A stretch of 64,000 nt of DNA from the NCBI RefSeq assembly GCF_002854065.1, contig NZ_CP024147.1; one strand, given 5' to 3'. Below, in pieces: positions 58,699 through 58,718 of this stretch. The first letter of the stretch is position 1. The number at the start of each line of letters is the position of its first letter. The notes beneath the pieces were generated by a model, which did not search any database, was not told where the DNA came from, and saw only the letters and a list, made by a program, of their open reading frames with translations. The position numbers were made by a program, and so were the translations under genes. The stretch is from Escherichia coli (GTDB lineage: Bacteria > Pseudomonadota > Gammaproteobacteria > Enterobacterales > Enterobacteriaceae).

Positions 58699-58718
58699 TT
58701 TAAATAACAAAATCCTAA
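58699..58718 (-). promoter_or_regulatory. GAD box (GadE binding site) upstream of gadB
   Basis: Minus-strand TTAGGATTTTGTTATTTAAA matches the 20-bp GAD box, about 80 bp upstream of the gadB ATG. Confidence 0.6.

Follow-up and report, generated by a model that had tools for sequence, protein, structure and literature searches.

A K-12-identical GAD box upstream of gadB in an Escherichia coli chromosome

The sequence at positions 58699–58718 of the window (the whole 64-kb stretch of Escherichia coli DNA that was analysed) can, with very high confidence from its sequence, be assigned as the GAD box of the E. coli gadBC promoter, the operator at which RcsB and GadE would activate gadBC. The element is read on the minus strand, as is the downstream gadB gene, where its sequence is TTAGGATTTTGTTATTTAAA (tttaaataacaaaatcctaa on the plus strand). 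It matches the published GadE site TTAGGAttTTgTTATTTAAa, as quoted in PMC4918353, at 20 of 20 positions, and all of the G's of the wild-type box used in PMC2887963 are kept, including the G that is changed in the M1 mutant. In a pattern search, this sequence was the sole match in the 64-kb window when up to three mismatches were allowed, against 0.01 matches expected from dinucleotide-preserving shuffles of the window. The gadB-proximal end of the box at 58699 is separated from the gadB ATG at 58619 by 79 nt (80 positions to the A), and the same offset is observed for both K-12 gadB and K-12 gadA (L002, box at 12661–12680 and ATG at 12581). The original prediction had described a GadE box at these coordinates, on the minus strand and at the expected distance from gadB, and each of these assignments is borne out by the mismatch-free match and the K-12-like 79-nt offset. 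Alignment with the gadA and gadB promoters, the check that it proposed, reveals a 20-mer that is the same as the K-12 boxes and keeps the same spacing to the −35 element, the −10 element and the ATG. A mismatch to the GAD box consensus, which had been named as the observation that would count against the assignment, does not occur in the formal alignment. The GAD box upstream of gadB is an already known, textbook element, found here in a typical E. coli chromosome. The K-12 gadBC box is reportedly also credited to Castanie-Cornet and Foster (2001) and to Ma et al. (2003).

The functional description of this element comes from K-12, where the GAD box was defined as a 20-bp consensus with its centre 63 bp before the gadA and gadBC transcription starts and with 16 bp between it and the −35 element (PMC2887963). 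One half of the box resembles an RcsB half-site (PMC2887963). GadE by itself does not bind to the gadA GAD box in vitro; RcsB and GadE together protect the region from −50 to −76 of gadA and bind the gadA box as a heterodimer with an apparent constant of ~10 nM (PMC2887963). A G-to-C substitution in the gadA box, M1, abolishes both binding and GadE-dependent activation, and the GAD box and the RcsB box are, according to the same authors, strictly conserved at gadB (PMC2887963). The heterodimer footprint and the mutagenesis were made on the gadA box, which is the same 20-mer as the gadB box. Thus, the term "GadE box" used in the original prediction points to the right site and to an incomplete binder: in vitro, it is the RcsB/GadE heterodimer, and not GadE alone, that binds (PMC2887963).

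In vivo data for K-12 place GadE at the same position. The GadE ChIP-exo peak at K-12 gadBC, labelled 'Act', spans 1570144–1570175 in version 2 MG1655 coordinates and is centred at −62.5 (PMC4918353). In converted coordinates, the K-12 GAD box at 1570149–1570168 lies inside this peak, and the peak corresponds to 58694–58725 of the window. The offset between versions 2 and 3 of MG1655 at gadBC, which we take to be +1976, is based on the version 2 gene coordinates and on the insertions that distinguish the two versions. With an analogous offset of +1977 for gadA, the gadA and gadBC starts each fall 28 nt before the ATG, consistent with the value of +1976 used at gadBC. By RNA-seq, gadB expression in a gadE mutant falls from 2532 to 29 FPKM (log2 −6.44, about 87-fold), and gadC changes by log2 −5.85 (PMC4918353).

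Over its last 24 kb, the window is 100.0% identical to E. coli CUWW06, which was isolated from wastewater in Thailand; most other complete E. coli genomes share 95–99% identity with this region. The gadBC promoter and its surroundings contain the following features, all on the minus strand.

58950–58974, minus: terminator-like hairpin of pqqL, with a 10-bp GC-rich stem followed by AUUUU
58847–58866, minus: GadX/GadW-type motif AGGTCTGATTTTTACGTGAT, 19 of 20 positions as in AKGKCTGWTWTTWWYMYVAK, at about −201 to −220
58699–58718, minus: GAD box TTAGGATTTTGTTATTTAAA, at −53 to −72 if transcription starts at 58646 and −52 to −71 if it starts at 58647
58683–58698, minus: 16-nt spacer from the GAD box to the −35 element, CACGAGTCCTTTGCAC
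58677–58682, minus: probable −35 element TTGCTT, placed by the 16-bp rule of PMC2887963
58660–58676, minus: 17-nt spacer from the −35 to the −10 element, which includes the RcsB box core
58660–58669, minus: RcsB box core CGATAAATCC (putative limits), directly upstream of the −10 element; predicted repressive RcsB homodimer site
58654–58659, minus: probable −10 element TACTTT, 17 nt past the −35 element and invariant in 11 promoters
58646–58647, minus: predicted gadBC transcription start, placed by identity to K-12, giving a leader of 27–28 nt
58626–58631, minus: Shine-Dalgarno sequence AAGGAG, read from the sequence, 6 nt ahead of the ATG
58619, minus: gadB start codon ATG
57219–58619, minus: gadB, glutamate decarboxylase B, 466 aa from the ATG start, 465 of 466 aa the same as K-12 GadB
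55528–57063, minus: gadC, glutamate:GABA antiporter, co-transcribed with gadB (open reading frame list; CUWW06 and K-12 annotation)

Depending on which of the two predicted start sites is used, the GAD box would be centred at −62.5 (58646) or at −61.5 (58647). The start at 58647 follows from the −62.5 centre of the ChIP-exo peak, and the start at 58646 fits the spacing statements of PMC2887963. The window is base-for-base identical to the K-12 gadB promoter from 58739 (about −93 to −95) through the ATG and beyond; relative to the K-12 gadBC GAD box described in PMC2887963, the 20-bp sequence and the core promoter are therefore the same, and differences are confined to the region further upstream. 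The operon and its neighbours also correspond to those of the K-12 locus, with gadB followed by gadC, pqqL upstream and digH downstream, and the sole difference between the encoded GadB and that of K-12 is one D-to-E change. A longer gadB reading frame that opens with a TTG at 58688 (57219–58688, 489 aa) was rejected as an ORF-calling artefact. This frame would extend across both promoter hexamers, the −10 and the −35; based on the K-12 and CUWW06 annotation, the gadB start is the ATG at 58619. A scan for the sigma-70 consensus gave no promoter for the strand of gadB and did not report the −35 sequence TTGCTT. This miss is not evidence against the promoter, since both the −35 (TTGCTT) and the −10 (TACTTT) are weak and the promoter depends on an activator and RpoS. 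An Rfam scan of the whole window likewise returned nothing in the gadB–pqqL intergenic region.

The 15-nt motif that MEME derived from the GadE ChIP-exo data, TTARGAWWWWAAATA (PMC4918353), has no match in the window with at most one mismatch. By reading, only the left ten positions of the box, TTAGGATTTT, fit this motif. The authors describe the 15-nt motif as 'mostly consistent' with the 20-bp box (PMC4918353). As the motif covers the left half only, the right half of the box appears to be less general among GadE targets. The discrepancy concerns the generality of the motif and not the identity of 58699–58718 as a GAD box.

A closely related arrangement is found at the gadA promoter of the acid fitness island, which has the same 20-mer, the same 16- and 17-nt spacings, the same −10 sequence TACTTT, the same RcsB core GATAAATCC and the same 79-nt distance to the ATG. 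In contrast, its spacer and upstream flank sequences are unlike those of gadB, and the first base of its RcsB box is G (GGATAAATCC) rather than the C found in gadB (CGATAAATCC), as stated in PMC2887963. The RcsA/RcsB box and the BglJ/RcsB and MatA/RcsB sites resemble the GAD box in that RcsB pairs with an auxiliary regulator of the LuxR/FixJ type on an asymmetric site (PMC2887963). These other RcsB heterodimer operators differ from the GAD box in having a partner other than GadE and a different right half-site.

Conservation within E. coli was assessed in 5,426 complete genomes. Of these, 5,404 contain the 126-bp core promoter, and 5,364 gave a match to a 30-nt query that consists of the box with 10 nt of flank, with the aligned part 100% identical in every case. 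Because megablast reaches a query of 30 nt only via an exact 28-mer, at least 28 of the 30 nt are exact in each genome counted. When K-12 and five alleles taken from across the range of identity were aligned, no substitution was found inside the box, and some were found on both sides; just downstream of it, AAACACG is replaced by AAAACCG, AAACCCG or AAATACG. These sequence comparisons indicate that the GAD box is under strong purifying selection. A different situation is seen in strain MSI001 (L006, NZ_CP076645.1, 2548001–2548672), in which the gadB promoter is interrupted by an IS5-like element of the ISKpn26 family. The part homologous to the window reaches only a short way upstream of the −35 element, so that the GAD box is displaced or lost. 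The MSI001 promoter may be a natural variant in which gadBC is either GadE-independent or silent. In the E. coli genome searches, six gadB promoter/GAD box matches were located on records classed as plasmids.

Beyond E. coli, a scan of 100,044 species representatives for the exact 20-mer returned 11 loci. Eight of these are Escherichia promoters, from E. albertii, E. whittamii, Escherichia sp. E1V33 and two species-level genomes labelled 'E. coli', and in each the box lies 79–80 nt upstream of a gadA or gadB start codon (protein start MDQK... or MDKK...). As these loci were retrieved by means of an exact match to the box, the 100% identity within it follows from the selection itself, unlike the E. 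coli population counts, which are unbiased conservation data. With that restriction, exact copies of the box occur in four other Escherichia species-level genomes, in which the flanks diverge. Across 11 Escherichia gadA and gadB promoters, the 16- and 17-nt spacings are fixed, the −10 is invariant at six of six positions, the TTGC of the −35 is invariant and the RcsB core is nearly so (GAT.AATCC invariant), whereas identity is down to 43–44% in the 30 nt upstream of the box and in the 16-nt spacer. The remaining three loci (L015, L016 and L018) are from metagenome-assembled genomes of Lentisphaeria or Bacteroidales and show no gad gene at the spacing expected; the 20-mer lies there in sequence that is free of stop codons in the single frame that was read. 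These three copies are best read as chance matches, and they illustrate that an exact match to the 20-mer is diagnostic only together with its context.

Three other explanations of the sequence were weighed against an RcsB/GadE operator. The 20-mer might be a passive passenger, kept the same at gadA and gadB by gene conversion rather than by selection as a binding site. The two genes are near-identical paralogues, and their upstream regions have several identical blocks in common. However, the identity does not run on as one conversion tract: the spacer of 16 nt on one side of the box and the 30-nt flank on the other are divergent across the promoters, yet the box itself is identical at 20 of 20 positions and its spacing is fixed. 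This island of identity amid divergent flanks argues against simple gene conversion, as do the gadB alleles within E. coli, in which substitutions directly flank the box and never fall inside it, and the published mutagenesis at gadA, by which the box is needed for activation (PMC2887963). We consider a passenger origin extremely unlikely. A functionless AT-rich 20-mer, present by chance in an AT-rich intergenic region, has next to no probability. Chance origin is possible in a search space of about 300 Gb, as the three exact copies in unrelated Lentisphaeria and Bacteroidales genomes suggest, but the expectation for the window was already far below one even at three mismatches, all eight Escherichia matches share their distance to a gadA or gadB start codon, and about 99% of E. 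coli genomes have the 20-mer unchanged.

The third explanation accepts the box as a binding site and makes the AraC-type proteins GadX and GadW its main occupants, as activators or competitive repressors, in place of GadE and RcsB. Earlier reports, summarised in PMC6128205, indicate that GadW and GadX can repress by competitive binding to the GAD box. In K-12, however, the GadX ChIP-exo peaks at gadBC are centred at +66, −184 and −225 (PMC4918353) and not near −62, where the GadE peak is centred. In the window, these peaks correspond to 58561–58601, 58811–58851 and 58852–58892, none of which lies on the GAD box. The only match to the GadX/GadW motif in the window with at most two mismatches is that at 58847–58866, where it straddles the two upstream K-12 GadX peaks; as 0.5 such matches are expected by chance, this match is meaningful only because it coincides with the peaks. 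In addition, activation by GadE is >50-fold, as compared with <2-fold by GadX (PMC4918353). Occupation of the box mainly by GadX or GadW is thus highly unlikely, and assignment of 58699–58718 as an RcsB/GadE operator is retained.

Based on the K-12 data, a mechanism can be proposed in which GadE, a LuxR-type activator, and RcsB, a response regulator, would bind the asymmetric 20-bp box as a heterodimer at about −62. From this position, the heterodimer would activate gadB, which encodes glutamate decarboxylase, and gadC, which encodes the glutamate/GABA antiporter, in acid and in stationary phase. A box near −62 probably acts like a class I activator site, with RNA polymerase contacted from the same helical face as at −61.5. 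The RcsB site beside the −10 element may repress when the Rcs system is strongly activated, and H-NS, together with GadX and GadW acting from distal sites, would modulate the promoter. Given the identity of the sequence to K-12, we infer that the box works in this strain as it does in K-12. Canonical GadE/RcsB control of the main glutamate-dependent acid-resistance operon would then be kept in this E. coli lineage.

The regulators that such control calls on, GadE, RcsB, GadX and GadW, are encoded by intact genes in the matching genome of CUWW06; the window presumably derives from this strain or one nearly identical to it. The acid fitness island of CUWW06 contains hdeAB, hdeD, gadE, mdtEF, gadW, gadX and gadA; its GadE is the same as that of K-12 at 174 of 175 aa, and rcsDB and rcsC are also encoded. 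The gadA promoter of CUWW06 has the same GAD box at the same 80-position offset. The original prediction had suggested a conserved acid-resistance regulon, and this view is supported both by CUWW06, which has gadE, gadX, gadW, hdeAB and hdeD, rcsB and a gadA with the same box, and by the near-fixation of the box in E. coli together with its exact conservation in the four other Escherichia genomes. In CUWW06, a chu/shu haem-uptake cluster adjoins the acid fitness island (L020, 4425000–4474999) and is followed on its far side by a large arsenic-resistance and integrase island that carries copies of IS1 and IS2. The presence of chuA in CUWW06 indicates that the strain does not belong to phylogroup A or B1.

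Upstream of the box, the promoter diverges from K-12. Seventeen substitutions are packed into 103 bp at 58740–58842 (about −94 to −196). The 180 bp downstream of this patch, which comprise the core promoter and the start of gadB, are the same as in K-12, and the 148 bp upstream contain three differences. With the GAD box on one side and the GadX/GadW motif on the other, the patch partly overlaps the −184 GadX peak of K-12 (58811–58851). Other E. coli alleles are also variable across 58740–58842, and an identity of 99% or more across the complete gadB–pqqL intergenic region is reached by only four records. The patch could represent a lineage-specific allele, from a rare lineage, that alters GadX/GadW or H-NS input to gadBC, although we consider this unlikely. 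If true, GadE/RcsB control would be conserved while the modulatory control of gadBC evolves.

The upstream neighbour pqqL ends at 58981, and the hairpin at 58950–58974 begins 7 nt past its stop codon. Its predicted folding energy is −21.2 kcal/mol (z = −5.7, RNA fold), and it is likely the pqqL terminator, which would insulate the gadB promoter from read-through. A consensus terminator scan missed this hairpin, probably due to its short T-run; the only terminator-like match of that scan, at 59020–58999, was discarded, as it lies inside the pqqL coding region. Elsewhere in the window, Rfam matches at gathering score were obtained for the McaS-type Hfq-binding small RNA isrA at 15314–15442 on the plus strand (119 bits) and for a SECIS_3 selenocysteine insertion element at 34405–34463 on the plus strand (84 bits), the latter presumably inside a formate dehydrogenase gene.
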